This document shows positions 3,120 through 24,258 of a DNA stretch of 60,698 bases, one piece after another. The stretch is taken from NCBI GenBank assembly GCA_964430025.1, contig CAYSFA010000001.1:1-60698 (forward strand), in the 5' to 3' direction. This DNA is from an uncultured Anaerolineaceae bacterium. Its GTDB lineage: Bacteria; Chloroflexota; Anaerolineae; Anaerolineales; Anaerolineaceae. Every line of letters begins with the position of its first letter. The stretch's first letter is position 1. The translations under genes and the position numbers were made by a program. The notes below the pieces were generated by a model. It made no database searches and had not been told where the DNA came from. It saw only the letters and a list, made by a program, of their open reading frames with translations.

Positions 3120-4159
3120 TTGGCATCCTCTCCTTCAAGTAGCTCATTTCTCAGTGTTTCCATAACTTCCAAATTTAATTTAAACGCAGTGTGGGCTGGT
3201 TTTCTATCTTCAATTAATTGAGTTATTCTTTGAATGTAGGCATTTTCGTTTCTGGATCGATCTCTCGCATCCATCCGATTTATCTCCTCTTCATCCACCT
3301 TCACATTAACAGTAAAAGTGTGCGGTAGATTCTGAGAACCTAAAGCGATTGCTCTTCCAAGCTTTGCTTCATTTCCTAATTGAAAATTCTGCGACCTATG
3401 TTCAATAATTTCAACCTGACCATTTGTGTAAATACTCAGGTAATCTTCCATTGAGCTCTTCGTTCCACGTCGCTGGTACATTTGAACTGCAACCTGCAGC
3501 AGATTCCTTTTTCGTTCTTCTGGTAAATTCTCATCCCAGACCACACCTAACCATGATCCCAACCAGGGTAGAAATTCGGATGGTGTGAAAGCTGGGTCAA
3601 AATACAAATCTATCTGATTGATCTGTTGGTTGATTGGCTTCCAGAAACTCTCAAAAAGCATTAAATAACGTCCAATAAAATCCTGGTCGTGGTAAATTTC
3701 TGGTAAATGATTAAGATAACTTCCCTTGGGATGAACCGCTACCCGGATATTCTCACTCGCAACAATTTGTCCTTTTGAATTAATAAGATCCGCTACACTG
3801 ACAAGATAGACCTTACGTACCTGATTTAGAACCTTTGCTTTGATTGTTAATTCAAGAAACTGACCAGGAAGATATTTCTTACCTAAATGCCAATCAACTA
3901 CCTGTGCTGCTTGTTGATCTTTTACGTAGGTATCACCCGTTTCATTTTCATTGATTGAAAACTCAATTAATTCAAGACCTAATGGTAAGGCTATAGAAAG
4001 TATTGAGTTGATATACTCTTTCTTAAACAATACTCTTGTAAAGAAATGAACAATCTCACCCGGGTAGCGACTATAGAAATCAGGCACGAAGGATAAATCT
4101 GGGACTTTTGTATATTCTATTTGATCCTCTACTTCAATAATTGGAAACATTCTGCTCAC
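3116..4159 (-). CDS. CIS baseplate protein, phage P2 gpI-like (Afp12-like)
   Basis: LPEIYHDQDFIGRYLMLFESFWKPINQQINQIDLYFDPAFTPSEFLPWLGSWLGVVWDENLPEERKRNLL is a typical Tail_P2_I core. The GTG start at 4159 overlaps the upstream stop (GTGA). An alternative ATG lies at 4150. Confidence 0.8.
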   Translation of the reverse strand: MSRMFPIIEVEDQIEYTKVPDLSFVPDFYSRYPGEIVHFFTRVLFKKEYINSILSIALPLGLELIEFSINENETGDTYVKDQQAAQVVDWHLGKKYLPGQFLELTIKAKVLNQVRKVYLVSVADLINSKGQIVASENIRVAVHPKGSYLNHLPEIYHDQDFIGRYLMLFESFWKPINQQINQIDLYFDPAFTPSEFLPWLGSWLGVVWDENLPEERKRNLLQVAVQMYQRRGTKSSMEDYLSIYTNGQVEIIEHRSQNFQLGNEAKLGRAIALGSQNLPHTFTVNVKVDEEEINRMDARDRSRNENAYIQRITQLIEDRKPAHTAFKLNLEVMETLRNELLEGEDAK

Positions 4160-6720: not shown

Positions 6721-6738
6721 ATCAATTTCATTCCTTTT

Positions 6739-7029
6739 TTATCCACCGATCAACACATTAGGTTGGCCTTTAGCCACCACTGTAGAAACAGGCACACCAG
6801 TTGCAGGGTTTGATCCGGCAACCTGACTGGTCATTCGCGCCGCCGGTCTACCACCAATGAGGACAGTCATGCTTCCCATCACGATCGATCCCATACAAGC
6901 TGCCCCGCTGACCATATCACCAACAACCGATGCCGGAAGTCCACCAATCAAGACATTGGCTACACCAGGTCCAGTGATAGCATCTCCGGTTGCGGTCATA
7001 TCTGATACTCTTGCTGCTGGAAAACTCAT
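6739..7029 (-). CDS. PAAR-domain spike-tip protein (Afp10-like)
   Basis: Two literal PAAR motifs (FPAARVSD, RPAARMTS), Gly-rich, 96 aa, immediately downstream of the spike gene. RBS is AGGAGAG. Confidence 0.9.
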   Translation of the reverse strand: MSFPAARVSDMTATGDAITGPGVANVLIGGLPASVVGDMVSGAACMGSIVMGSMTVLIGGRPAARMTSQVAGSNPATGVPVSTVVAKGQPNVLIGG

Positions 7030-7059
7030 TATTCTCTCCTGTCCTGATCCATATTTTGC

Positions 7060-9677: not shown

Positions 9678-12527
9678 TCAAAATAGCCGACCAGAATTCC
9701 TTTCTTTTTCAATCGCAATCCAGCGTTTTATAATCGGATATACATCCTTCGCTAATTTTTCCAAATCAACCTTAACATCTACCAATTCTGTGGGTTGTGG
9801 AGAAATTTCAATATTTTCATTCGAACTTTCAATCTGTCGTTGAACGACCGGACCTTGAACTTCCATTTCTGGTTTGAAATATCCCTCAGTGGTTTCTACT
9901 TTTTTTGTCTTCACCACAGGCAACTCAACCTCAGATGGTTTTGGTTTTGGATAGCTTTTCCCTGAATTAGCTTCCTTTTGTGGTTGCAAAGGGATAAGTG
10001 TTAACTTTTCTGAACGAGGAGATTGCTTTCTTTGTGAAGGTGAAGATTTTATAATTTCAGATGAAGTTGTTTTATTAATTCTTCCGCCAGGTTTTTGTTG
10101 ACTGCGCTGAGAAATAATTACAGGCGGTATTCCACTGACCTCATCAAGTTCGGAAGGCTTCTTTTCAATGGATCGAGCCGATTGGTCAATTTTTCTTTGG
10201 ATCGTTTTTCTCCCTGGCGATGAGATCAACAACCTGTCCTGAAAAGAAGGTGTAAAAATCCTTTTTGGCTGAGAACCAGTCAAATTCTTTTGTTCCTGGG
10301 TTCTTTTTGTTCCCTTCATAGACACCAATATCTGATCTCTTATTGATGGAGGTTCTCCGACAACGCTGGGCGATGGAGAAGAACTCTGGGGAACAACACC
10401 TTCATCACCGGAAAGAGTTTGCCTATCAGGTTTGGAAATGTCTCGCAAAATTGGTTTCGAAAGTGATTCAGATTTAGATATGCTTTTTAAAATAATAGGC
10501 AATTTCGGTTTATTTGATTGCCCTTGAACTTTTCGTTTAATATTTGTATTAGTCGTCTCGCTAATTCGTTTTCGAATGTTCCTGGGAGATATATCAATCT
10601 TAATTTTTTCAGGTTGCACATCCAAGGAAGGCTTATCCTTTGGTGTCTGCAATTGTTGGCGTAATGGTTTATCGATCGGGAGAGATTCTGATCTTCTCTC
10701 TTTTGATGAAGATTGAACTTCTGGCTCAGCTCTTTCTTGGTTGATTTCTTGATCTGTCGTCACTTGACGCTGGACAACAGGTTTTTGTGCCGGGGTAATA
10801 CCAGGCCTTTCAATACCAGGATGAAATACAGGTTTTGGTTTCTCCTGTGAAATTTGCTTGTTCTTTTTAATAATTTGATCAGTAAAAGTTTTAATTACTG
10901 AAGGTTGTGACTTTTTCTTGATAACCAATGGTTTATCTAAAATTTCTGGTTTTGTACTGTCCACTAATCTTTCAAGGGTTTGTGGTTCATTTACTTCAGT
11001 TTTTCTATTTGATAACTCAATACTTCGACTTTCTAATTTTTCTGGTTGAGTCTGAGAAGGTACTGGTTTGCTCTGTTTCTGCTTAGGTGTTTCTTCATGT
11101 TTCTCTAAAGCAGTTTGAAGTTTTTCTTCTTTTCTCCTAGTATCATCAGTCGGGAATTTTTGTTCCAATTCTTGTGATGATTCCCCTTCTTTCCTTTTGG
11201 ATTGAACCTGCGGTTTCTTTGCCAAAGGAAAATTCATCTTATCCGTTTCTTCTGATGTCCTGGTTGTTGGCTTTTCATTCATGATGACCGGTTCATGATC
11301 ACCATCTTTGGCCATTTCTCTTTGAATTTTATGATCAAAAGTTTGTTCAAAGGCACGTTCTTTTGTTGTAGGTTTTGGAGAAGATTGATCACTTTCTTTA
11401 TTTTCGCCATTCGAACTGATCTTTTCTTTTTTCTCAGGCGAGATTTCTTTTGGTGATCCCATTTTATTAATGGATGATGAAGAGGGTTGTGTTTGTTTAT
11501 CCTCTGTAATTTTTTTGATTAATTTTTTATCTTCCAGCTTCTCAGGTGAAACTTGTTGCTGGTCGCTTTGGTCATTGTCTGTTTTTGAAAACGACTTCTT
11601 CGGACTCAGAGTCCTAAGTTCTTCTTTGATTTCCTGCTCATGGGAAGGTTTAATTTCTTGAACTGTTCGTTTTGTTTCAAAAGTTTTTTCTGAGGAGTCG
11701 CTCTCCTCTTTCTTCTCCTGAGTGCGAGGAGTCTGATCGATTTGTCTTCTGATGACCTGGTTTTGATCGGTTTTATCAAAAGCGGGATTCTCGATATTTT
11801 CAGTTTTTGAGCTGACTTTTTGAGTGCTTGCTTCTGGTTTTTGTTGTTTTTCCTCTTTTACCTTTGATTTCTCAGGAGGTAAAGTCTTGTCTTCTGAGGT
11901 TGGCACAGAGTTGCTTACCTCTTCTATTTTTCCAGAATATCGACTGGTTTTAGGATGAATTTCTTCAACCTTGCTGAAAGGACGTTGTGGAAGATCACTC
12001 TTCTTGGGTGTTGGTTTTGTATTTTTTCCTTCCTGTGCACTTAAGCGTGCTCGTCTTCTGGCAATGAAAGAAGGTTCACCTTCAGAAATCGGAGGAGGGT
12101 CGAAGGGAGGAATTATTTGTCCACCAATTGGAAGACCTGTTGATAAACCACCTAAAGATGGTTGTGGGGGAATTACAGTTGGAGTCTCAACTGACGCCCC
12201 ATTTTGCAGGAGCATATCCACCTTATCCCAGGACTGACCCTTTGGAGTACTTACTTTCTTTGCACCAAGAGTCATGGGAAGCTGCTTATTTGTCTTGAGC
12301 TTGTCACTAAAAGATTTTATTTTTCCTCTGAGCTTTGTTCCTGGAGGGTTCAAATAATGTTGCTTTACGATGGAAGAAGGCCGAATTATTTTGGAAATCT
12401 TTGATTTAATTTTTGGCAGAATCACACCTGAAGCAGACTTCCTATTGAGAAGTCTGGTAGCCATCGGAGAAATATCAGGCTTGCTGTTATTATTTTGCGC
12501 TGTTGAGGTGTTTTCGATTTCTGCCAT
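9678..12527 (-). CDS. tape-measure-slot protein (Afp14-like by position only); 949 aa, extremely low-complexity K/E/P/S/Q/T-rich with a short structured C-terminus
   Basis: Sits between the tube paralogs and the LysM initiator, where CIS and P2-like tails encode the length determinator. Only the last ~35 aa (VDVKVDLEKLAKDVYPIIKRWIAIEKERNSGRLF) look like an ordered amphipathic helix. No family motif recognised. Confidence 0.45.
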   Translation of the reverse strand: MAEIENTSTAQNNNSKPDISPMATRLLNRKSASGVILPKIKSKISKIIRPSSIVKQHYLNPPGTKLRGKIKSFSDKLKTNKQLPMTLGAKKVSTPKGQSWDKVDMLLQNGASVETPTVIPPQPSLGGLSTGLPIGGQIIPPFDPPPISEGEPSFIARRRARLSAQEGKNTKPTPKKSDLPQRPFSKVEEIHPKTSRYSGKIEEVSNSVPTSEDKTLPPEKSKVKEEKQQKPEASTQKVSSKTENIENPAFDKTDQNQVIRRQIDQTPRTQEKKEESDSSEKTFETKRTVQEIKPSHEQEIKEELRTLSPKKSFSKTDNDQSDQQQVSPEKLEDKKLIKKITEDKQTQPSSSSINKMGSPKEISPEKKEKISSNGENKESDQSSPKPTTKERAFEQTFDHKIQREMAKDGDHEPVIMNEKPTTRTSEETDKMNFPLAKKPQVQSKRKEGESSQELEQKFPTDDTRRKEEKLQTALEKHEETPKQKQSKPVPSQTQPEKLESRSIELSNRKTEVNEPQTLERLVDSTKPEILDKPLVIKKKSQPSVIKTFTDQIIKKNKQISQEKPKPVFHPGIERPGITPAQKPVVQRQVTTDQEINQERAEPEVQSSSKERRSESLPIDKPLRQQLQTPKDKPSLDVQPEKIKIDISPRNIRKRISETTNTNIKRKVQGQSNKPKLPIILKSISKSESLSKPILRDISKPDRQTLSGDEGVVPQSSSPSPSVVGEPPSIRDQILVSMKGTKRTQEQKNLTGSQPKRIFTPSFQDRLLISSPGRKTIQRKIDQSARSIEKKPSELDEVSGIPPVIISQRSQQKPGGRINKTTSSEIIKSSPSQRKQSPRSEKLTLIPLQPQKEANSGKSYPKPKPSEVELPVVKTKKVETTEGYFKPEMEVQGPVVQRQIESSNENIEISPQPTELVDVKVDLEKLAKDVYPIIKRWIAIEKERNSGRLF

Positions 12528-12536
12528 AATCTATCT

Positions 12537-13181
12537 TTAGAATATTGATTTCACAGCACTCAGTGGGCTCATGGGTAAACCAAATTTAGGATCAATTGTT
12601 AATCCTTCATGAACGATTTCCATGGTCTCAATTGCTACTGAATTAATGTCCGACACGTTCAAATCTGACAATTTCCAACTGGCTGGATAAGCATTTACGA
12701 CATTCCAGCGTTTGACAACGCCGTAACCACCGCTCCCTGGGATTAACGATGTAACACTTTGTCCGGTTGCTCCTTGAATAATAGAAAGATTCAATCTTTT
12801 TACCTGGAAATCATATATGCCAAATTGGAACCAATCCCACAATTCTTTGGAGACAGTCATCCCGCGTTTGAAGGTGATCCGATTGAATTCAATTTGACCA
12901 GGCAAATTATGGACCCCGTCATTAAACCCACCTTCCTGAATGGTCTCCACCTTTCTGGATACACCAATCCCACTCACCTCGGTGAATAGGCCAACGATCA
13001 ACCCCGAGATTTCTATGTAGAAAAGATATGTTGGGGCAGGATCAAAGCGAACCCCGGTTAAATTTTCTAATTGCCGGATTCCTGCAGCCCCTACCATCCC
13101 CTTAGCAGCATCCATAATACTTTTTGGAGCTGGTTTGTTGGCAGGTTTATCAATTTTCTTAGGTCCATCAATTAGACTCAT
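12537..13181 (-). CDS. tube-like protein (T4 gp19 fold paralog) with ~55-aa N-terminal extension
   Basis: YLFYIEISGLIVGLFTEVSGIGVSRKVETIQEGGFNDGVHNLPGQIEFNRITFKRGMTVSKELWDWF parallels the two tube proteins (FKFGLEIEGKLSGFF ... LTWTEVTLKRGVTSNLDIWDW). Confidence 0.75.
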   Translation of the reverse strand: MSLIDGPKKIDKPANKPAPKSIMDAAKGMVGAAGIRQLENLTGVRFDPAPTYLFYIEISGLIVGLFTEVSGIGVSRKVETIQEGGFNDGVHNLPGQIEFNRITFKRGMTVSKELWDWFQFGIYDFQVKRLNLSIIQGATGQSVTSLIPGSGGYGVVKRWNVVNAYPASWKLSDLNVSDINSVAIETMEIVHEGLTIDPKFGLPMSPLSAVKSIF

Positions 13182-13198: not shown

Positions 13199-13357
13199 AA
13201 TTCAGCGGGGCAATCGTTCGTTTTCTTCTCTAAGTTTTCGCTTTAGAAGTTTCATTATCTCTTTCGCAAGTTCTTCAACATCAACATTTTTCAATTGTTG
13301 ATGTTCAACTTTTGCAATGTCTGATGTTTTATTCGATTCACTTTCTTCTAAAGACAT
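13199..13357 (-). CDS. unannotated 52-aa ORF; its C-terminus repeats the C-terminal motif of the tape-measure-slot protein
   Basis: Own translation: MSLEESESNKTSDIAKVEHQQLKNVDVEELAKEIMKLLKRKLREENERLPR*. Below the length cutoff of the ORF track. A purine-rich GAGAGAG lies upstream. It ends 17 nt before the next gene's start. Confidence 0.5.
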
Positions 13358-13385: not shown

Positions 13386-13550
13386 TTATGTGGTTACATT
13401 CATTCTTTTATTAATCTTTGCAATCTCTTTTACCCATTGACGACGCTGGCGATGCTCCAGATCGAGTACTTTATCCAGATCCCAATGGAAATGGTAGGAA
13501 ATGTAGGCTACCTCCTCATAGATCTGATCGAGAGGGTAGCCTACGATTCC
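13386..13550 (-). other. -1-frame open extension (53 codons after the G run) with no start codon of its own, reachable from the upstream CDS by a -1 shift
   Basis: Codon-by-codon translation of the -1 frame: ...LGGG IVGYPLDQIYEEVAYISYHFHWDLDKVLDLEHRQRRQWVKEIAKINKRMNVTT*, stop at 13386-13388. There is no ATG/GTG/TTG before Met-48 of this stretch. The frame is closed by TGA just upstream of the G run (13569-13571). Confidence 0.5.
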
Positions 13551-13556
13551 CCCCCC
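13503..13556 (-). promoter_or_regulatory. candidate -1 recoding signal: G8 run (G GGG GGG heptamer) + 5-nt spacer + 10-bp perfect hairpin
   Basis: Coding strand reads aac ttg ggg ggg gaa tcg tag. C8 on the plus strand is at 13549-13556. Spacer is gaatc. Stem gtaggctacc (13544-13535) pairs with ggtagcctac (13512-13503). After one mismatch the stem extends by 5 more pairs (incl. 2 G-U), leaving a 10-nt loop. Confidence 0.5.
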
Positions 13557-13912
13557 AAGTTTGCCAGGTCAATTTCGACTGGTTTTCCACAATGATTACA
13601 GGTCACTGTTCGAGTAGTTTTACCTGTTTCATTGATCTGTTGGTAAAAGGATTGCAAGTACGCCAAATCAGCAGCGAAAAGATTTTCAACAACGCTGGTG
13701 GTAATATGCTGTAATGTGCCTAAACTGGTAATTACCCTGGTTAACAATACAATTATTAAATAGGCTTCATTGGATTGAACACGCATGTCATTTAATGGGG
13801 TAATTTCATCCATTGCAGTCGCCAAACGCATGACTCCGCGTTTATGGAGATTTCCTTCCCGATCAACGTATCCAATTGGTAATTCAAATTCAAATTCAGT
13901 ATGTAAGCTCAT
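13541..13912 (-). CDS. small CIS protein in the tail-assembly-chaperone slot (Afp6-slot; P2 gpE / Mu gp41-like position)
   Basis: 123 aa, sits between the tube genes and the tape-measure-slot gene. The N-terminal pattern FEFELPIGYVDREGNLHKRGVMRLATAMDEI resembles phage tail assembly chaperones (recall only). A single CxxC (CNHC) lies near the C-terminus. Confidence 0.5.
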   Translation of the reverse strand: MSLHTEFEFELPIGYVDREGNLHKRGVMRLATAMDEITPLNDMRVQSNEAYLIIVLLTRVITSLGTLQHITTSVVENLFAADLAYLQSFYQQINETGKTTRTVTCNHCGKPVEIDLANLGGES

Positions 13913-13946: not shown

Positions 13947-14420
13947 TCATGGATCAGTTCTCTCTATCGATTCGGCAACAATCGTCAGTGAAAATTTTGC
14001 TACATTTGCCACATTGTATTGATTGCTTTCGAATCCCGAGATTTTCGAAGGCCATGCGTTGAAAAGATTCCATGCAACCAGTGGAATGTATTCGCCATCT
14101 TTTAATGCATTTAAGGTGATGGTGACATTTTTCCTTGCATCAGAATAAGCGCCACTACTTGCCTGGACAAACCAGTTATAGAGCTCTTTGGTATTGCCAA
14201 ATCCGCTTTTCAATTCCACAGGGGAATAAGAGGTCATTCCGGGTATTAATAATGTGCTAGATTCTCCTGAACTGTAAACGACATTGTGTTTGATAACATT
14301 GATTTCAACCTCTCCACCAGAAAGAGTATCGAAAGTAGCTAAGCGGGTTTGGTTTACATCCAAAGTGTAATAACAATCCAGAGGATTTAACTTAAAATCT
14401 TCTTTTATAGAACTAAGCAT
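13947..14420 (-). CDS. CIS tube protein 2 (T4 gp19 family; Afp5-like)
   Basis: 157 aa. YYTLDVNQTRLATFDTLSGGEVEINVI ... VELKSGFGNTKELYNWF ... WNLFNAWPSKISG parallels tube 1 (WEFTNAWPSKVVG). Confidence 0.85.
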   Translation of the reverse strand: MLSSIKEDFKLNPLDCYYTLDVNQTRLATFDTLSGGEVEINVIKHNVVYSSGESSTLLIPGMTSYSPVELKSGFGNTKELYNWFVQASSGAYSDARKNVTITLNALKDGEYIPLVAWNLFNAWPSKISGFESNQYNVANVAKFSLTIVAESIERTDP

Positions 14421-14526: not shown

Positions 14527-14973
14527 CTAAGGTTTTACTCGTTCCATGCCTTCATGTACGATCGTAACTTCTTCAAGCATGTACTCTGTGCTTCCTGAAT
14601 CCAACTCTGGGCCAACAACTTTGCTCGGCCAGGCATTGGTGAACTCCCAACGGGCAATCGGCTGCTGATCTTGTGAATAAGCAATAATTGAGCAGTTTGT
14701 TCGGGCATCTTCTACCTTCCCCTGCACAACCAAATTTCGCCAATCCCAAATATCCAAATTACTGGTGACACCACGCTTGAGTGTTACTTCAGTCCAGGTC
14801 AGGCGACCAGGCAATTTTTGAATAATTGTCTCACCGTTTTCATTTACAACTTTATGGTCGACAACTTCAGTTTCAGAGCCAATTCCACCTACAATGGTAA
14901 AAAAGCCACTTAATTTTCCTTCAATTTCTAGTCCAAACTTAAACGCAACAAGAGGGTCTTCACGTCCAGGCAT
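14527..14973 (-). CDS. CIS tube protein 1 (T4 gp19 family; Afp1-like)
   Basis: MPGREDPLVAFKFGLEIEGKLSGFFTIVGGIGSETEVVDHK... is the classic tail-tube N-terminus. The second ATG (14973) has better spacing to the AAAGGAG RBS than the track start at 14979. Confidence 0.9.
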   Translation of the reverse strand: MPGREDPLVAFKFGLEIEGKLSGFFTIVGGIGSETEVVDHKVVNENGETIIQKLPGRLTWTEVTLKRGVTSNLDIWDWRNLVVQGKVEDARTNCSIIAYSQDQQPIARWEFTNAWPSKVVGPELDSGSTEYMLEEVTIVHEGMERVKP

Positions 14974-15006
14974 TTTCATGCTCCTTTCTAGTGATTAATG
15001 TTTTAT

Positions 15007-16665
15007 TTACTCTGAGCCCGGGCCAGCCCATTGACTAATCCGGAAGATAACAAATTCTGCTGGTTTGACTGGTGCCATACCAATTTCAATGATCAAACGA
15101 CCTAAATCCCGTGATTCTGGTGGATTTAACTCATCATCACACTTGACATAGAAAGCTTCATCAGGTGAACTTCCGAATAATGCGCCATCACGCCATACCA
15201 TCTTCAGGAAGGCGGTTGCATCTCTGCGAACTCTTGCCCAAAGTTTCCGATCATTCGGTTCGAAAACAACCCATTGAGTTCCATTTTCAATGGATTTCTC
15301 AACATAGTTGAATAACCGACGAACGTTTATATACCGCCAAGAAGGATTGCTGGAAAGCGTTCTTCCACCCCATACTCGGATTCCCCGTCCCGGGAAACTG
15401 CGAACAACATTTACACCGATTGGGTTGAGTGTATCTTGTTCACCTTTTGTGGTTTGATAACCAAGACCAACTGCTCCAAGCACGACTTCATTTGCAGGGG
15501 CTTTGTGGACACCACGGGTATTGTCATTGCGTGCCCATACACCTGCCATATGCCCTGAAGGTGGAATTGCAATAACTTTATTGGTAACTGGATCCATTAC
15601 CTCAATCCAGGGATAATAAAGTGCGCCATAGCTGGAATCATATCCTGCTGTGTTCATTCGCCAATTCTTGATTTCCTGAGGGCTCATATTTGGCGGAGCA
15701 TCCAAAATCGCAACACGATCGCCCAAGCGTTCACAATGGGCAAGCATCATGGATTGAACACCTTTAACCATATCCATGTCTAGTTTTTGACCAGGCATTA
15801 CAGTCATCAAATCAGGAACACAAACCATTGTGACATCATCAAGAACTTCTAGCCCTTCCACACCGCTTCGTTTCGTGACATCGCCCTGAAACTCGGTTGG
15901 GGTTGGGGGAGGTAAAAGGGATTTCTCAATCGTGAGGACCTGTTCCTGTTCTTTTGGCACAAGCTGGGTGACTGTTGCTTTGTCATTGGTAACAACTAAC
16001 TCCACTAATTTTGAGAATTTGTTGTTTTTATAGGCTACTCCAACTTTCTTCTCGCCATTGACCGACATATCCTGCAATTGGACTTCTTTGAGTGTTTCTA
16101 CTACTTTCCAGGATGTGTCTGATTTTTCTTGTTCCACAAAAAGTGTGAAGCTGGTTCCACCATCTCCTTCACCAGCTACATCTTCTTCAACTTTGCCTTC
16201 TTCATCTTTAGAAGATTTTTTGGTTGTGGAAGCAGGTGCAGGAAGGAATACATCACCAACACGAACTCTAATGCGCATACCTTCTGTCCCAGAAGTGCGT
16301 GCGCGTGCAGTTAATGCTGGTTTTCCTTGTTGGTTCAGTAAGGTTGCTTCAGCTTTGGGGAATGTCCGAACGCTGACTACATAACATCGTGAACCACCAT
16401 TCATAAAATAACCATAAATTGCTTGAGGAAGATACGCTCCTGACACAAAACTTCCATATCTTTCAACGTATTGGGTCCAATTAGTAACGAGTTGGGGTTT
16501 ATTTAATAAATTCTCAACTAATTGTTCTCCATCTACCTCGCGAACCATCTCTGCTTTTTCAGTGAAACCAACAAAAGCAGCCATCGCGGTACCAACACCT
16601 TCAATTGGCTTCGGACCACGATCTACTTCTTCAACATAAACTCCTGGTGATAAATATTCTGGCAT
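15007..16665 (-). CDS. contractile sheath protein (Afp2/3/4-like); only sheath gene in the locus
   Basis: MPEYLSPGVYVEEVDRGPKPIEGVGT is the hallmark sheath N-terminus. The C-terminal domain has GVNVVRSFPGRGIRVWGGRTLS. 552 aa. Confidence 0.95.
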   Translation of the reverse strand: MPEYLSPGVYVEEVDRGPKPIEGVGTAMAAFVGFTEKAEMVREVDGEQLVENLLNKPQLVTNWTQYVERYGSFVSGAYLPQAIYGYFMNGGSRCYVVSVRTFPKAEATLLNQQGKPALTARARTSGTEGMRIRVRVGDVFLPAPASTTKKSSKDEEGKVEEDVAGEGDGGTSFTLFVEQEKSDTSWKVVETLKEVQLQDMSVNGEKKVGVAYKNNKFSKLVELVVTNDKATVTQLVPKEQEQVLTIEKSLLPPPTPTEFQGDVTKRSGVEGLEVLDDVTMVCVPDLMTVMPGQKLDMDMVKGVQSMMLAHCERLGDRVAILDAPPNMSPQEIKNWRMNTAGYDSSYGALYYPWIEVMDPVTNKVIAIPPSGHMAGVWARNDNTRGVHKAPANEVVLGAVGLGYQTTKGEQDTLNPIGVNVVRSFPGRGIRVWGGRTLSSNPSWRYINVRRLFNYVEKSIENGTQWVVFEPNDRKLWARVRRDATAFLKMVWRDGALFGSSPDEAFYVKCDDELNPPESRDLGRLIIEIGMAPVKPAEFVIFRISQWAGPGSE

Positions 16666-18200: not shown

Positions 18201-21200
18201 TTAGAGCTTTGATAATTTCGATTTTATTAATGCAGTGGCTGCGGCTTCATCCTCGTCAATCCAGGAGGTATAAGAGGTAGTATCTCCTAAATTAATTAGG
18301 TTGATTTTCAAAACATTCACGACAAATTCAGCCGCTTTCTTGCTTGTGTTGGCATCCGAACTCCTTAGCAAGCCGATCAGATTTGTAGCCTGAGTATTTA
18401 ACTCAGAATCACTGGGCTTATTTTTCTTTTCTGCAATCATCTGTCCAATGCCACCAAGAATCCCTAAACCACTCATAGCTGCACCAGCAATTCCTAAGCC
18501 AAAACCACCTTCTTTTGACATTCCAGCCAAGCTACCAATACCACCAATCGTACCTAAGCCACTTCCAAGAAATGAAGTAACAGATTTAAAAATTCCGAAC
18601 CCTTTTCCTGTCTTATTCTGATTCTTTGCGGTAAATTGAGCAATCGCGTTCATTTTAACTTCATCGCTCGTTAATGCCCCACTAGCGGGAGCTGCTTTGA
18701 TGAATCCTTTGGCGGCACTACTTCTTTTCCTGGCGCTGTGCATCGAAGCGCTGCCTTTGCCCAATCCTAGTCCGGAACCTATCATCCCAAAGAAGCCACC
18801 AGCCACACCAAGGCCACTGGAAGCTTTGTCAGCACTATCTCCTGAAGGATCATTGGCTTTGATAACATTGCCTGAAAAACTCGAACCACTACTCGCCATA
18901 CCAAAAACTGATTGTGAAATTCCCCATCTTCCGCGGGATTTTTCTTTTTCTCCGTATAGTTTTGACGCTTTGGAACTGTTTTTGTCCGACATTTTGCTGC
19001 CACGCCGTAGTTGAGAAATACTGCCCAACAATGATCCACTGGAAGCCAGGAAATTTCCCGCGTCTGCAGCCGCGCTGGTACCAGCTCCAGCCCTGTCCAA
19101 TGTTTCATTATCCCCCGTACCCTTGGAAAGACTGGTAATTGACCCCGCCAACCCAACGCTACTAAGAACGGTATCTGTTGCGCCATGTCCTGTTACTTCC
19201 CCAATTTTATCCATGGCATTTTCTTTTTTGTCTCTTCTGAACTTCGCATTATTGATTGCTTTTTGTATCTCAGGAATTGTGGATTTCGAAAGAGCATCAC
19301 CTCGTATTAGTGCCCCTAATCCATTCCAGTAGGAAGGGGACATTTGAGGATAAGCATCTTTTATTTTCTTCCAATCAGCTGCGGAAGAGATATCCCGTTC
19401 ACCACCATCCAATGGCCATATCCCAGATACTGCTGCTGCCCCTAATTCACCTAATTGAGCATCATTTAATCCAAATTCCAGAAGATAACCTCTTCTTTCA
19501 TTGCTTGTGATTTTTGTCCAATTTGATAAACTCAATTTAAGTTTAGAAGTAATGTTTGTGAAAATTCCATCATCCTTAATTGGATTTCTGTTTTTGTCAA
19601 GCGGCCAATTTCCCTGGAGAGCTAGTACCACCAAATCTCCAATGTAAGATTTAGTGCCATTAGATAATAGAAAACTTCTTTGGTCTTTGTCAGCTATGGA
19701 AAGCCATTTTGCTAATGAAATTTTCAAAGTTTCGGTGATTGTTTTGAATTTATTATCGTCCAGGATATCCTGGTCACTTTCACCTTTTGGCCAACTACTT
19801 TGAAGAACAAGTTTGACTAATTCTCCTATGTAAGTCATTGAACTATTATCGAGCAGGAATCCTCTTCTTTCTTTCGTAATAGATAGCCAATTTGTCAAGG
19901 ATATTTTCAGGCTGTTAGTGATTTTAGTTAAATTACCATCATCAAAAATAAGTGCATCACTGCCATCTTTCGGCCATTTTCCTTGAATAACCATCCCAGC
20001 TAATTCAATAGCGTAAGATTTAATTCCATTATCAAGAAGACATTTTCTTTTGTTAAGATCCGTAATTCCCATCCAATTATTAATGGAAAGTTTAAAGGTT
20101 TTTGTCAGTAGACTTAATTTTTCATCGCTTAAAATTTCTTGATCATTTCCATCCTTTGGCCATTTGTTGGATAAAGCCAATGACACTAGTTCTGTAGCAT
20201 ATGGTTTAGTGCCGTTCTCCAAAAGGAATTTTCTTTGGGGTAAATTCGAAATATTAAGCCATTGATCAAGGGTAATATTCAAGGATTTTGTGATAATGTT
20301 GAATGAATTTGCATCCATGATATCCTGATCATTCCCGTCTTTTGGCCATTTACCCTGGAGAGCTAAATTCAATAATTGTTTTACGTATGGTTTTGTACCA
20401 TTCTGTAACAGGAAACCTCTTTGTTTTATCTCGCTAATCGTTTGCCATTGATCCAAAGCAATATTCCATGTAACAGTGATTAATTTATATGAATTTTCAT
20501 TAAGGATTTCCTGATCATTGCCATCTTTTGGCCATTTTGCTGCAAGTGCCAACTCTGCTAATTTAACCGCATACAGCTGTGCACTATTTTTCAACAGGAA
20601 GTCTCTCTGTTTTTTATCTGAAATGGTTTGCCACTTATCTAAAGAAATTTTCAGGGTGTCAGTGATAGTCTTAATGATATTCTCATCAAGAATGAACTGA
20701 TCATTTCCATCTTTTGGCCAATTACCCTGAAGGGCCAAATCAAATAATGTTTTTGCAAAAGGTTTCGTTCCATTCCCTAAGAGGAACCCTCTTTGGGTTT
20801 TTTCCATAATCGAGACCCATTGATTCAAGGTTTTTCCAAGTACCTCAGTGATGGTTTTGTAGCTATTCTCATCAGAGATATCCTGATCGTTACCATCTTT
20901 CGGCCAATTCTTAGTTTTAGCAAGTGCGATTAGATCCTGGATAAATGTTTTATCTTTCAAATCTATTAACAATTTTTTGTAAGGTGCATCCAATGTTGCC
21001 CAATCAGCGAAAGATACTTTTAGAGTTTCTATAATGATTCTCAATTTTGTTATCCCAGTTATCTCTGCACCAGATTCATCTTTTGGCCATTGTGATGCTT
21101 TCAATGCTGTGACTAACATTTGTGCTATCGCTGGATCCGATTTAACTAAATCCATTATTATTTTCTGTTTCTCTTGGGGAATGTTGTCCCAATCAGCTTG

Positions 21201-22064
21201 ATCCAACACACCTGCGCCTTGCACCAAGGCTAAATCCGCTGGGCTCAGACCTGGTTTGGGAGCTGGAGCTGGGGTTGAGGTTGTTTGGGATGGTGGAGTT
21301 GTGCCTTGCGGAGGAGTAGTGTTGGTTTGGGTCCCTCCCTTTGAGAATACACCACCGATTTTTGATTTTATTCCAGCCATTGTTAAACGTTGAACAGTAT
21401 CAGGGGTGGTGGAAGTAACCCCTTGAGATTGTCGTTGCCCAGATTTAGCAAATCCTTCTGCCTCATGTTCAAATTTATCATTTGGATCCCCTAACTTCAA
21501 TGGCCCATTCGATGCAGAACCGGAGGATTGTTGTACCACATGAGTCAACTCATGCATAAGAGTATCACGTCCTTCTTCTGAGTTGGGAGAGTAAGCTCCT
21601 TTTCGGAAGAAGATATCATTACCAATTGTGAAAGCTTTGGCTTGGATTTTCCGGCTGACAGTATCTGCCCGTTGATCAGCATGCAAACGAACATTTTCAA
21701 AACTTTTCCCAAATTTTGATTTCATCTGTTCAGAGACATCTGCCTGTAACGGTTGCCCGCCAGATTTTGCTCGTTGAATTTCATTGGTCACATATTTATT
21801 CAAAAACCCAGTCTGATCAACTACTGGATCTTCTGTTTTAGCAGGTTGAATTATTCTTCTTACTTCATTATTTCCATAGCGGTTTTGTAACGTTTGAATC
21901 ACCTGTGGAGTGGATTCCATCGGAGATTTAACTGCATGGATCAATTGGTCCACTGATTCAAATTGATTCTGAATCAGCTGTGGTTTCGAAAACTCATGTT
22001 TTTGGATATCATGTTCCTGATTCTTTTCCTTACTTTTCAGGTGTTCATTTTGAGTTTTTGCCAT
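18201..22064 (-). CDS. DUF4157 zinc-metallopeptidase-like (HEXXH) protein with ten ~62-aa repeats and a Gly/Ser-rich glycine-zipper C-terminal region; candidate CIS cargo/effector
   Basis: The DUF4157 core GGQPLQADVSEQMKSKFGKSFENVRLHADQRADTVSRKIQAKAFTIGNDIFFRKGAYSPNSEEGRDTLMHELTHVVQQ has HELTH at nt 21540-21554. It is followed by a Pro/Thr linker, then 10 WP(K/L)(D/G) repeats, then GxxxG-rich hydrophobic segments. ATG at 22064 (track GTG at 22070). Overlaps the ATPase gene's 3' end by 20-26 nt. Confidence 0.85.
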   Translation of the reverse strand: MAKTQNEHLKSKEKNQEHDIQKHEFSKPQLIQNQFESVDQLIHAVKSPMESTPQVIQTLQNRYGNNEVRRIIQPAKTEDPVVDQTGFLNKYVTNEIQRAKSGGQPLQADVSEQMKSKFGKSFENVRLHADQRADTVSRKIQAKAFTIGNDIFFRKGAYSPNSEEGRDTLMHELTHVVQQSSGSASNGPLKLGDPNDKFEHEAEGFAKSGQRQSQGVTSTTPDTVQRLTMAGIKSKIGGVFSKGGTQTNTTPPQGTTPPSQTTSTPAPAPKPGLSPADLALVQGAGVLDQADWDNIPQEKQKIIMDLVKSDPAIAQMLVTALKASQWPKDESGAEITGITKLRIIIETLKVSFADWATLDAPYKKLLIDLKDKTFIQDLIALAKTKNWPKDGNDQDISDENSYKTITEVLGKTLNQWVSIMEKTQRGFLLGNGTKPFAKTLFDLALQGNWPKDGNDQFILDENIIKTITDTLKISLDKWQTISDKKQRDFLLKNSAQLYAVKLAELALAAKWPKDGNDQEILNENSYKLITVTWNIALDQWQTISEIKQRGFLLQNGTKPYVKQLLNLALQGKWPKDGNDQDIMDANSFNIITKSLNITLDQWLNISNLPQRKFLLENGTKPYATELVSLALSNKWPKDGNDQEILSDEKLSLLTKTFKLSINNWMGITDLNKRKCLLDNGIKSYAIELAGMVIQGKWPKDGSDALIFDDGNLTKITNSLKISLTNWLSITKERRGFLLDNSSMTYIGELVKLVLQSSWPKGESDQDILDDNKFKTITETLKISLAKWLSIADKDQRSFLLSNGTKSYIGDLVVLALQGNWPLDKNRNPIKDDGIFTNITSKLKLSLSNWTKITSNERRGYLLEFGLNDAQLGELGAAAVSGIWPLDGGERDISSAADWKKIKDAYPQMSPSYWNGLGALIRGDALSKSTIPEIQKAINNAKFRRDKKENAMDKIGEVTGHGATDTVLSSVGLAGSITSLSKGTGDNETLDRAGAGTSAAADAGNFLASSGSLLGSISQLRRGSKMSDKNSSKASKLYGEKEKSRGRWGISQSVFGMASSGSSFSGNVIKANDPSGDSADKASSGLGVAGGFFGMIGSGLGLGKGSASMHSARKRSSAAKGFIKAAPASGALTSDEVKMNAIAQFTAKNQNKTGKGFGIFKSVTSFLGSGLGTIGGIGSLAGMSKEGGFGLGIAGAAMSGLGILGGIGQMIAEKKNKPSDSELNTQATNLIGLLRSSDANTSKKAAEFVVNVLKINLINLGDTTSYTSWIDEDEAAATALIKSKLSKL
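19290..21150 (-). repeat. in-frame tandem coding repeat, 10 units, central units exactly 186 nt (62 aa)
   Basis: The conserved core tggccaaaagatgg (plus strand ...ccatcttttggcca) ends at 21089, 20906, 20720, 20534, 20348, 20162, 19976, 19793, 19617 and 19417. Spacings are 183, 186, 186, 186, 186, 186, 183, 176 and 200 nt. The outer boundaries of the array are approximate. Confidence 0.85.
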
Positions 22065-24258
22065 TTCCACCTTCCTTTTGCGTCAATAACAGATCCTTAT
22101 CCTGGACCAATCTACCCATTTTTTGCATTTCCCTGCGAATTGCGTGAAGCAAATGCTGATTCGAAACATACGAGTTCTCACTCGCGGCTAGAAATGATGC
22201 GCTGATTATGACATTTCTAATCGAGCCACCGGTTAGTTTAAAACGATCACCTAATTCATTCAAATCAATATCCTCAGCCAGTGGGACTTCAGCGGGGAAT
22301 AATACTTTCCAGATCTTTTGTCTTTCCTTCTCATCTGGGAATGGAAAATCAACGATAAATTGAATTCGGCGGGTAAAAGCTTCATCCATGTTCGAACGGA
22401 GATTGGTCGCCAGGATGACTACTCCATCGTACGTCTCCATACGTTGGAGTAAATATCCTACTTCGATATTGGCATAGCGATCATGAGCGTCTTTTACCTC
22501 TGACCGTTTTCCAAAAATAGAATCAGCTTCATCAAAGAATAGAATTGCATTGCTGTTTTTTGCCTGGCTAAAAATCCTCTCTAAATTCTTTTCCGTTTCA
22601 CCAATATATTTACTAACAACGGTAGAAAGATCAATTTTGTACAAATCCATTCTCAATTCAGCTGCGATAACTTGTGCTGCAAGAGTTTTGCCAGTTCCTG
22701 GTGGACCTGCAAATAAAGCCGACACACCTGCATAAGGCATTAATCTTTTCCCTACTCCCCATTCATCCAAAACCACTGATCGCCAACGAATAGTATTCGC
22801 TAATTCACGCAGAGATTGAATTCCATCTTCAGGGAGAACTATATCTTCCCATTTATATCTGGGTTGAATTTTTGTTGCCAACGTATTCAGATGATGGCTG
22901 GAATAAAACCTGGCTGCTTCATATAAATCATCAATTGTGGTGGGCATTCCTTTACTGATAGCAAGATCTTGTGCAGAAAAAGCAACATTCTGGATCTGAC
23001 TGGCCGAAAGGTTAAACTGATTTGCGAAAATCTCTAATTCCTGGTCATCAATACGAGAATTGTCGCCAAGATATTCCTTCCAAATATTTAGTCGTTTCCC
23101 ACCAGGAGGATTTACACAATTCAGCCAGAATACAGGCTTGTTGTTTTCTTTTTGATTTCGAAGGATTGGCCAATTCTTTTCCTGATGAACTAGAACTGTA
23201 TCCTCAAAGTTTAAGAATTGTTGGAAGAAAGTATCGATTTCTTCATTGGTATTAAAAACAGCATCCAACCCGGTGATCATAGGAATTGCACCAGACAATT
23301 TCACATCCCTCATGAATATTCTGAATAAATCATTTTTTGATTGATCGTTGATCTGTAATTTATCCAGCTCTAGAACCAATAATGATTGTTCTTGTTTGGC
23401 AGCGATGTGATCAGAAATGTACTGCTTTTGTAATACATCATGACCATAAAGAATAATGATTGGTTTTTGTTTCAGAACAAAGTCCAATCCCTCAGGAAGA
23501 TCGAAAATTTCTGAGGTTCTGTTATTCATTGTAGGTGCTATCAAAGTTAAGCCTTCAGCAAGATATTTATCCGGTTGAAATTCACCAATTAACCATGAAA
23601 TAACCTCACCTGGAACGATGTAATTTTGCTTTAATATTGGCTTTTCGGCAGATTGAATATCTGAATAATTTCTGATCAGGTGGTTCTTGATCAAAGTCGA
23701 TGATTTATTAAAATACTTCAGATAAGTAAGTTTTTCAAAATCCGGTTTTAACAACAAATCAAAGATTAAAGAAATACTCGCGTACTTAGTGGTGACATCA
23801 TCATGTAGAAATCCAAAAATTTTCTCATAACGAGTATCCAACATAGGAGACAGGCAAACCAGAAAAGCATTAAATTCAAATTCGGATAAATTAAATAAAT
23901 TTCTAAATTCTTCAAGTTTTAATTTCTTGTTTTCAACCGAAGCTTGTGTCTTAATTCGGTCGATTTCCTCCGCAACCTGTTTTCTCAAATGAGTAAATTG
24001 TTGAATTTCTTCTTCTGGTAATGAACTGATCGACCCCCAATTTCCACCGATTGGTTGTTCGAGTACTTTCTGAATTGTTCCTTCTGAAATAAATAAACCC
24101 CTGAAATTTTCCGAGAAATTCAGACCGGCCAATTCCCAGCGCCGTATAGCTTCTCGAATATGCAAATCAATTTTTAGTAAATATAAATGCAAATACTGAA
24201 AATTTATATGCATTAAATTTTCAATATTGTCATCACTTTTCCAATATGTGTCTTCCAC
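22045..24258 (-). CDS. AAA+ ATPase (Afp15/Pvc15-like), first gene of the CIS operon
   Basis: C-terminal AAA module has Walker A GPPGTGKT and Walker B AILFFDEADSIF, preceded by a long N-terminal domain. GTG start at 24258 with GAAGGA 6 nt upstream. Confidence 0.85.
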   Translation of the reverse strand: MEDTYWKSDDNIENLMHINFQYLHLYLLKIDLHIREAIRRWELAGLNFSENFRGLFISEGTIQKVLEQPIGGNWGSISSLPEEEIQQFTHLRKQVAEEIDRIKTQASVENKKLKLEEFRNLFNLSEFEFNAFLVCLSPMLDTRYEKIFGFLHDDVTTKYASISLIFDLLLKPDFEKLTYLKYFNKSSTLIKNHLIRNYSDIQSAEKPILKQNYIVPGEVISWLIGEFQPDKYLAEGLTLIAPTMNNRTSEIFDLPEGLDFVLKQKPIIILYGHDVLQKQYISDHIAAKQEQSLLVLELDKLQINDQSKNDLFRIFMRDVKLSGAIPMITGLDAVFNTNEEIDTFFQQFLNFEDTVLVHQEKNWPILRNQKENNKPVFWLNCVNPPGGKRLNIWKEYLGDNSRIDDQELEIFANQFNLSASQIQNVAFSAQDLAISKGMPTTIDDLYEAARFYSSHHLNTLATKIQPRYKWEDIVLPEDGIQSLRELANTIRWRSVVLDEWGVGKRLMPYAGVSALFAGPPGTGKTLAAQVIAAELRMDLYKIDLSTVVSKYIGETEKNLERIFSQAKNSNAILFFDEADSIFGKRSEVKDAHDRYANIEVGYLLQRMETYDGVVILATNLRSNMDEAFTRRIQFIVDFPFPDEKERQKIWKVLFPAEVPLAEDIDLNELGDRFKLTGGSIRNVIISASFLAASENSYVSNQHLLHAIRREMQKMGRLVQDKDLLLTQKEGGNGKNSK

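Follow-up and report, generated by a model that had tools for sequence, protein, structure and literature searches.

The stretch of DNA considered here, referred to throughout as the window, is a 60,698-nt (60.7-kb) piece of contig CAYSFA010000001.1 (assembly GCA_964430025.1) from an uncultured Anaerolineaceae bacterium, and, to judge by its gene content, it carries a contractile injection system (CIS) of the lineage-II type. The subject of this report is one gene of that system, which encodes a predicted tail assembly chaperone and which, like all of the features discussed below, lies on the minus strand. We propose that the 3' end of this gene holds a conserved -1 programmed frameshift of the type known from the E/E+E' genes of phage P2, a reading to which we assign a probability of roughly 0.8.

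The chaperone gene and the overlapping -1 frame

The frame-0 gene encodes a protein of 123 amino acids (aa), consisting of an N-domain and a C-terminal CxxC strand pair, and its 3' end reads aac ttg ggg ggg gaa tcg tag, with the run of eight G residues (G8) being read in frame 0 as ttG GGG GGG Gaa. The -1 frame opens five codons ahead of this run and reads P G K L G G G I V G Y P ... N V T T; past the run it continues as GGA AUC GUA GGC ... and terminates in a TAA at 13388-13386, 28 nt before the next ATG (13357). The shift window extends from 13568 to the frame-0 sense codon at 13546-13544, the frame-0 TAG following at 13543-13541, and the overlap of the two frames amounts to 25 nt here, the median overlap window across the related loci described below being 37 nt. 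An earlier note on this DNA, made from the sequence alone, had singled out the end of the frame-0 gene, the position of the G8 run, the slippery heptamer G GGG GGG within it and a -1 frame open for 53 codons, all of which are indeed read in the sequence, as is the lack of a start codon belonging to that frame itself: no ATG, GTG or TTG occurs until a Met five residues from the end of the extension.

The 53-aa peptide of the -1 frame matches the Pfam family DUF6760 (PF20546) with an E value of 1.5e-15 (57.4 bits, against a gathering cut-off of 27), which argues that the -1 open reading frame (ORF) is a real coding sequence. The predicted products are a short form of 123 aa and a fusion of ~175 aa (...ANLGGGIVGYPLDQ...), whose junction peptide would be ...LGGGIVGYPLDQIYEEVAYISYHFHWDLDK, or K.PVEIDLANLGGGIVGYPLDQIYEEVAYISYHFHWDLDK as it would appear in this organism. 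The proposal of isoforms of about 123 and 175 aa arising by programmed -1 frameshifting, made in the earlier note, draws support from the conserved overlap, the phase of the run, the covariation of the hairpin, homology and natural fusions, each of which is taken up below. It had also been remarked that the gap left without the extension would be the largest in the operon, which is roughly correct, the other large gap (6721-7059) holding a 96-aa PAAR-like ORF.

The G8 run is not significant in itself, and we rejected it as evidence on its own, its count matching chance: the 60.7 kb contain a single G8/C8 run, and 1.43 are expected. Since one such run is close to the chance expectation, proof must come from coding content and conservation. 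The putative stimulatory hairpin begins 5 nt past the heptamer, and its 5' arm contains the frame-0 TAG. Its outer stem is perfect, and the inner four pairs come after a one-nucleotide mismatch; the perfect 10-bp stem, the 5-nt spacing and the stop codon inside the stem had thus been described correctly before, and only the count of five further pairs needs to be lowered to four. The region 13495-13560, for which a folding prediction had been suggested, folds with -29.9 kcal/mol (z -4.06), and none of 200 shuffled sequences is as stable. The coordinates of these elements and of the neighbouring genes are collected in Table 1.

Table 1. Features of the frameshift locus and its surroundings in the window
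Feature	Position	Strand	Remarks
Frame-0 ORF, predicted short isoform of the tail assembly chaperone	13541..13912	(-)	123 aa, ends ...DLANLGGES*
Stop TGA of the -1 frame, 5' limit of the shift window	13569..13571	(-)	read from sequence
G8 run; slippery heptamer G GGG GGG = 13556-13550	13549..13556	(-)	run starts at third position of Leu codon
Predicted -1 frame extension, DUF6760 / P2 E'-like domain	13386..13550	(-)	GGA (Gly) + 53 codons (IVGYPLDQIYEEVAYISYHFHWDLDKVLDLEHRQRRQWVKEIAKINKRMNVTT) + TAA
Putative stimulatory RNA hairpin	13503..13544	(-)	outer 10-bp stem 13544-13535 / 13512-13503, inner 4-bp 13533-13530 / 13517-13514, loop 12 nt
Two tube genes (gp19-like)	13947-14420 and 14527-14979	(-)	immediately upstream of chaperone
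Sheath gene	15007-16665	(-)	upstream of tube genes
51-aa ORF	13202-13357	(-)	downstream of extension
Tube-like 214-aa gene	12537-13181	(-)	third tube-like gene, downstream
949-aa K/S/P/E-rich ORF, candidate tape measure/ruler	9678-12527	(-)	just upstream of LysM tube initiator and VgrG

Conservation, RNA selection and homology

A search with the fusion as query returned ~2190 homologs, and nearly all of the top 120 are 120-123 aa long and end in LGG(E/V/S)(S). The genome sample on which most of the counts below are based consists of 80 species-representative loci from Chloroflexota, Kitasatospora and Leptolyngbya-like cyanobacteria; an extension matching DUF6760 lies downstream in all 80 and is in the -1 frame in 79 of them. 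The same layout is found in 11 of the 12 IMG/VR loci with a detected extension and in all 74 metagenome loci, and it spans Chloroflexota, Actinobacteria and Cyanobacteria, with more than 160 independent loci in all. The earlier note had proposed a comparison of orthologs, and in this one the homopolymer, the hairpin and the open -1 frame are conserved together across the related loci.

The length of the run varies among the genome loci (G5 in 18, G6 in 15, G7 in 7 and G8 in 39) as well as among the 74 metagenome loci (G8 in 45, G7 in 11, G6 in 10, G5 in 7 and G9 in 1), and its phase is nearly constant: it starts at codon position 3 (NNG GGG G) in 79/80 genome and 74/74 metagenome loci and likewise in 11 IMG/VR loci, and the NNG GGG G slippery site is kept in the correct phase in every locus with a G-run but L003. 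Such a lock on codon phase is what would be expected for tRNA re-pairing, and it is required neither by slippage of RNA polymerase nor by a Shine-Dalgarno role of the run. The frame-0 stop sits 2-4 codons past the first GGG in 75/78 loci. The deviating locus L003 (CAVXXH010000005.1, ~3360) has a G7 run with the extension in the +1 frame, in contrast to the G8 of its near-identical relative L106; as the L003 sequence belongs to a long-read metagenome-assembled genome, its G7 is most likely a homopolymer assembly error. Two other departures from the common layout were seen, namely in L075 (Dehalococcoidaceae, 3280-3700), which has a longer frame-0 ORF and no G-run before the -1 DUF6760, and in L065-L067 (3300-3560), where a Gly-rich insert of 9 codons comes after the G5 site and the RNA downstream folds differently. 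A 176-aa "fused" homolog, P0004, was rejected as evidence for a plain ORF: it lies on a 706-nt contig, reached the -1 frame by an earlier indel and departs from the family alignment upstream of the CxxC.

The hairpin is conserved at the level of pairing. In nearly all loci the run is followed, at a distance of 4-8 nt, by the stem GGCUACC/GGUAGCC with its inner CUCG/CGAG helix. In an alignment of 70 distinct sequences 85% of the hairpin cells pair; with the partners displaced by 1-3 columns, which served as the control, no more than 51% do so. The observed covariation score is reached in none of 500 shuffles. Compensatory switches of pairs comprise CG<->GC (18 sequences), CG->UA (6) and GC->AU (4), counts that are inflated by the relatedness of the sequences, and in some of the switches the change is synonymous in one arm and alters an amino acid in the opposite one (Tyr TAC->TAT with Val->Ile). 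In Kitasatospora, a perfect 10-bp stem is kept by means of a 5' arm shifted by 5 nt (GUACGCGACC/GGUCGCGUAC). As a control for the constraint imposed by the protein, the same 19 codons were recoded synonymously 200 times per locus, and the real sequence proved to be more stable than its recodings in 75/75 loci (z < -2 in each, median z -5.0), the values for this window being -27.3 versus -9.4 kcal/mol (z -6.4). These results show that the hairpin is selected as RNA.

Homology places both parts of the fusion among tail assembly chaperones. The 123-aa protein matches PHROG 508, "tail assembly chaperone", with an E value of 2.5e-6, and 33 of 35 family members match the same group (best 3.8e-10); the N-domain also gives weak Pfam matches to Gp41_Mu and Phage_TAC_7. 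For the extension, the reference was the P2 E+E' protein, which was rebuilt from the -1 frameshift annotated in NC_001895. A profile of the 80 extensions aligns with P2 E' at an hhalign probability of 94.7% (E 6.4e-8) and shares with it the pattern VA.I.FHWP..E.L....W, and 47/80 extensions individually match PF06528, Phage_P2_GpE. It is the E' part alone that aligned, hhalign finding no significant similarity between the N-domain and the N-terminal part of P2 gpE; in the same kind of comparison the family was not significantly similar to Mu FS-gp41 (E 0.64). The NCBIfam collection holds no family for either the N-domain or the extension.

The AlphaFold model of the fusion has a predicted local distance difference test (pLDDT) score of 88.3. 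No match was found in the PDB by sequence, and a search of the PDB by fold returned nothing significant, the lone sensible match being YqbN (3klu) with a template-modelling score of 0.49 and a probability of 0.33. Fold matches in BFVD include T4-like baseplate-hub assembly proteins (E down to 5e-7), annotated tape-measure or tail assembly chaperones, and Mu FS-gp41 (target length 188; Foldseek E 0.024, probability 0.92). A tblastn search with the fusion against 50,697 phage genomes gave no match, so that this family is more than just a recent prophage gene.

Nature also provides lineages in which both domains are joined without recoding. Three proteins that represent clusters at 50% identity (P0131, P0138 and P0170) carry the N-domain and DUF6760 in a single frame; all three sit in injection-system loci, and at the equivalent position their RNAs have no unusual structure (z +0.4, +0.5 and -1.0). 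Among the lineages compared, those with the frameshift and those with an in-frame fusion, the hairpin is, on the sequences at hand, present only where recoding would be needed. In two of the three fusion lineages (L098 and L099), a separate N-domain-only paralog lies immediately upstream, and because of this short paralog two isoforms appear to be needed; short and long output would in these lineages be achieved by duplication and fusion rather than by recoding. In cyanobacterial loci, a paralog and the frameshifted gene are both present. The N-domain-only paralogs that we noted, all of which lack the CxxC (L098 2668-2994, L099 981-1397, L077 3004-3348 and L080 3001-3342), are situated directly upstream of a gene carrying DUF6760, whether by fusion or by frameshift, and repeated duplication of the chaperone gene is suggested by these arrangements. 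The earlier speculation that the CxxC of frame 0 and the HFH of the extension might form a zinc site in the fusion was not upheld: P0131, P0138 and P0170 lack the CxxC, in place of the first His of the extension there is often a Tyr (YYFHW), and P2 lacks this His (IFHW), and among the extensions only the second His and the Trp are conserved, for which reason this candidate site was rejected.

Proposed mechanism and its alternatives

In the mechanism that we favour, most ribosomes would read ttG GGG GGG GAA TCG TAG and release the 123-aa form, and a fraction would slip one base back with the Gly-tRNA(s) placed on the G-run. The invariant core of the site is a GGG codon with a G on both sides, at which the Gly-tRNA on the in-phase GGG could re-pair perfectly one base back; at loci with G6-G8, the Gly codon in the A site could re-pair as well (G GGG GGN). 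The hairpin, starting 5 nt downstream, a classical distance for a stimulator, would pause the ribosome at the run, and reading after the slip (GGA AUC GUA ...) would add the 53-aa E'-like (DUF6760) domain to give a product of ~175 aa. Going by homology with P2 E/E+E' and analogy with lambda G/GT, we expect that the N-domain common to both forms would coat a tape-measure-like protein, that tube subunits would be recruited by the extension, so that the minor long form would bridge the ruler-like protein and the tube subunits, and that the decoding event would fix the ratio of the short and long forms. That the slippage is ribosomal, and likewise its efficiency, the binding partners of the products and the necessity of the event, we infer.

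The closest known system is that of P2, which shows the same order of sheath, tube, E/E+E' and T (FI-FII-E/E'-T) with an annotated -1 frameshift, in which the short form is read in frame 0 and the long form arises by a -1 slip that occurs a few codons ahead of the stop, and whose E' is homologous to the extension described here. The differences are that the slip site of P2 is T TTT TTG, the present one being G GGG G(N) followed by a hairpin under strong selection; that the N-domain here has the extra CxxC strand pair; that the element here is a bacterial injection system without head genes; and that the candidate ruler of this window is set apart from the chaperone by two genes. Lambda gpG/gpGT, with the slip site G GGA AAG, follows the same logic of two chaperone isoforms that have a common N-terminus and arise by a -1 frameshift near the 3' end, although no sequence similarity was detected and lambda is a siphophage. 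The partner of lambda G is the tape measure and that of T the tube protein; the two forms are made at a ratio of ~30:1, and neither is found in the particle (PMC5009743). In Mu gp41/FS-gp41, the tail assembly chaperone of a myophage, recoding also takes place at a G-run (CGG GGG CGA), and the fold of FS-gp41 resembles the one predicted for our fusion, but the Mu extension is in the +1/-2 frame rather than the -1 frame. In the Mu genome (L183, NC_000929, 3553-4131), the run CGG GGG CGA lies ten codons before the gp41 stop; FS-gp41 rebuilt from it is 188 aa long, which equals the length of the BFVD target, and the RefSeq record annotates the 144-aa form only. Sites of the dnaX and IS911 type combine a slippery run with a stem-loop 5-8 nt downstream and make two products from one start; they use heptamers of the A AAA AAG type, often with an upstream Shine-Dalgarno stimulator, whereas at the present locus the run is of G only and the frame-0 stop lies inside the stem. 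DUF6760, finally, is treated in databases as a free-standing small protein of unknown function, unlike the start-less frameshift extension that it would be here.

Several points weigh against the frameshift reading. The first non-Gly codon of the extension in this window is AUC, a weak near-cognate start, and at 18/78 loci an ATG, GTG or TTG stands in the -1 frame at or beside the aligned codon. In L097, a low-GC (guanine plus cytosine) IMG/VR contig (3001-3545), DUF6760 has a 59-aa ORF to itself, which starts at an ATG overlapping the upstream TGA (ATGA), with no G-run and only a weak AU-rich stem (z -1.7); this arrangement is a third way of expressing the domain, and because of it DUF6760 can act as a free peptide in some lineages. 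In Streptomyces, DUF6760 is called from a GTG overlapping the TGA. L075, as mentioned, does without a G-run. The -1 sites characterised as efficient in E. coli are not known to include G-rich heptamers, and at loci with G5 the A-site GAA or GAG would presumably re-pair with a G.U at the middle position.

Some of these points would suit coupled (re)initiation, the principal alternative, which we consider unlikely. According to it, ribosomes terminating at the TAG would step back a few nucleotides and start again on the near-cognate AUC (13547-13545), DUF6760 would be a free peptide of ~53 aa, the G-run would be a Shine-Dalgarno-like element, and the hairpin would enforce dependence on upstream translation. 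Besides the ATG of L097 at the aligned position and the GTG start chosen by the Streptomyces gene callers, there are 13 loci with ATG at the aligned codon, which is AUN in 58/78 loci, and the closeness of the frame-0 stop to the first GGG, described above, would also agree with it. On the other hand, 60/78 loci lack a canonical start nearby, at least 16 loci have GTC, GTA, GCA or similar codons at that position, and the run stops 1 nt short of the codon where it is G5 or G6, leaving too little room for a Shine-Dalgarno element; for these reasons coupled initiation is not general. In this window, no canonical start was found at or next to the upstream stop, ATC and GTA occupying those positions. 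Coupled initiation would also leave the codon-phase lock of the run with no role; in other lineages the domain occurs in in-frame fusions, and the homologous P2 E' is made as a fusion; and wherever a frameshift is not called for, L097 included, the strong hairpin is either missing or weak.

Slippage during transcription, by which RNA polymerase would add one G and G9 mRNAs would encode the fusion in one frame, is in our judgement very unlikely. It follows directly from the sequence that G9 would give an in-frame fusion, but 33/80 genome loci with the same architecture have G5-G6, which is not known to be long enough for productive slippage of this kind, and both the codon phase and a hairpin at the distance suited to ribosomal pausing would be left unexplained. 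Homopolymer runs as such can make RNA polymerase slip (PMC5009743).

Hardly credible is an explanation at the level of DNA, with a true tract of G9 (assembly error or pseudogene) or a phase-variable contingency locus toggling between split and fused forms, since, although a G8 homopolymer is prone to slippage and the long-read L003 has G7, the run is exactly G8 in 39 genome and 45 metagenome loci with no in-frame length found, an independent contig encoding an identical protein (L103) has G8, as do the closest relatives (L104-L112) and the near-identical twin of L003 (L106), thousands of homologs end at the same place, and the extension, matching DUF6760 at every locus of the genome sample, is under purifying selection. 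A polymorphism of tract length that would switch the frame was not found, 84 G8-type loci being all exactly G8 with one G7 (L003), so that no in-frame length occurs among these ~85 loci; sequencing error and phase variation, both of which had been raised as alternatives in the earlier note, are rejected together with pseudogenisation because L103 and L106 carry G8.

The injection system and wider meaning

On the minus strand, the order of genes is sheath, tube, tube, chaperone, 51-aa ORF, tube-like gene, 949-aa ORF, LysM tube initiator and VgrG, after which come a small PAAR-like ORF, gp25, baseplate J and P2-I; on the upstream side there are also a Pvc16-type cap and, farther away, an AAA ATPase and an eCIS_core (DUF4157) protein. 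The assignment of the chaperone to the slot between tube and tape measure, made in the earlier note, holds, with the qualification that the 51-aa ORF and the tube-like gene intervene here. The 949-aa ORF has no Pfam or PHROG match and no hydrophobic 19-mers, and it is disordered and rich in K, S, P, E and Q; it is a candidate ruler or tape measure because it lies directly upstream of the tube initiator and spike. The same position has been used to argue for a tape-measure ancestry of Tme in Streptomyces (PMC11126660).

A Streptomyces locus (CP052033.1; L184, 2501-5498) contains sheath, tube, chaperone (165 aa), DUF6760 (52 aa) and an ORF of at least 1122 aa, a gene order that equals the FI-FII-E/E'-T order of P2, and there the large ORF follows directly after chaperone and DUF6760 with no intervening genes. 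Its junction, CTG GGG GAA TCG TGA, has the same phase as that of this window.

A frameshifted chaperone pair is textbook knowledge for tailed phages, and no new principle is involved here. None of the searchable literature connects CIS or extracellular contractile injection system (eCIS) loci with a frameshift or a tail assembly chaperone, although an earlier description is possible, as most papers in subscription journals lay outside that search; DUF6760 was likewise not mentioned in the searchable literature, and two papers on Streptomyces effectors contain no mention of a frameshift or a tail assembly chaperone. Lineage II has been described as having subtype-specific genes without known function, tape measures being generally absent (Chen 2019, PMC6899500), and a later account speaks of "additional proteins of unknown function" and of no typical tape measure (Casu 2023, PMC10066040).

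If our reading is correct, DUF6760 gains both a function and a decoding rule, as the E'-like frameshift extension of the upstream chaperone, which is now annotated as "hypothetical", "zinc-ribbon" or "phage tail assembly protein"; the annotation of thousands of genomes, including those of Streptomyces and Kitasatospora, would be affected, and injection systems would have retained a P2-type chaperone module. Expression or engineering of such systems would be expected to fail, or the ratio of isoforms to shift, if the overlap, the G-run or the hairpin were "cleaned up", codon-optimised or split. The loci would moreover offer a comparative series for -1 slippage on G-runs outside E. coli, comprising frameshift with hairpin, hairpin-less fusion and split coupled ORFs. 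A bolder extension, which we regard as rather doubtful, holds that the frameshift is an ancestral and obligatory part of assembly and length control in all CISs of the lineage-II type, including those of Streptomyces, the ratio of short to long form being tuned by the length of the run (G5 to G8), the strength of the hairpin and the neighbouring stop, and that G8 lineages could add a regulatable layer of transcriptional or DNA-level slippage; were this true, tube initiation and length determination would become directly testable and engineerable.

Some further observations concern the surrounding genes. The 51-aa ORF and the 949-aa ORF share a C-terminal motif (VDVEELAKEIMKLLKRKLREENER versus VDLEKLAKDVYPIIKRWIAIEKER; 11/24 identical, pairwise E 2e-4) that was found in no other ORF of the window and that could be a common docking or packaging tag. 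A 1289-aa protein (18201-22070, minus strand) with an N-terminal eCIS_core (DUF4157) domain is flanked by the AAA ATPase and a YbjN-like gene; a DUF4157 domain is also present in Tme, the tapemeasure-related effector of S. davawensis (PMC11126660). Lastly, the 96-aa ORF (6739-7029, minus strand) is rich in Gly, Val and Ala and lies between gp25 and VgrG, which is the usual position of PAAR.

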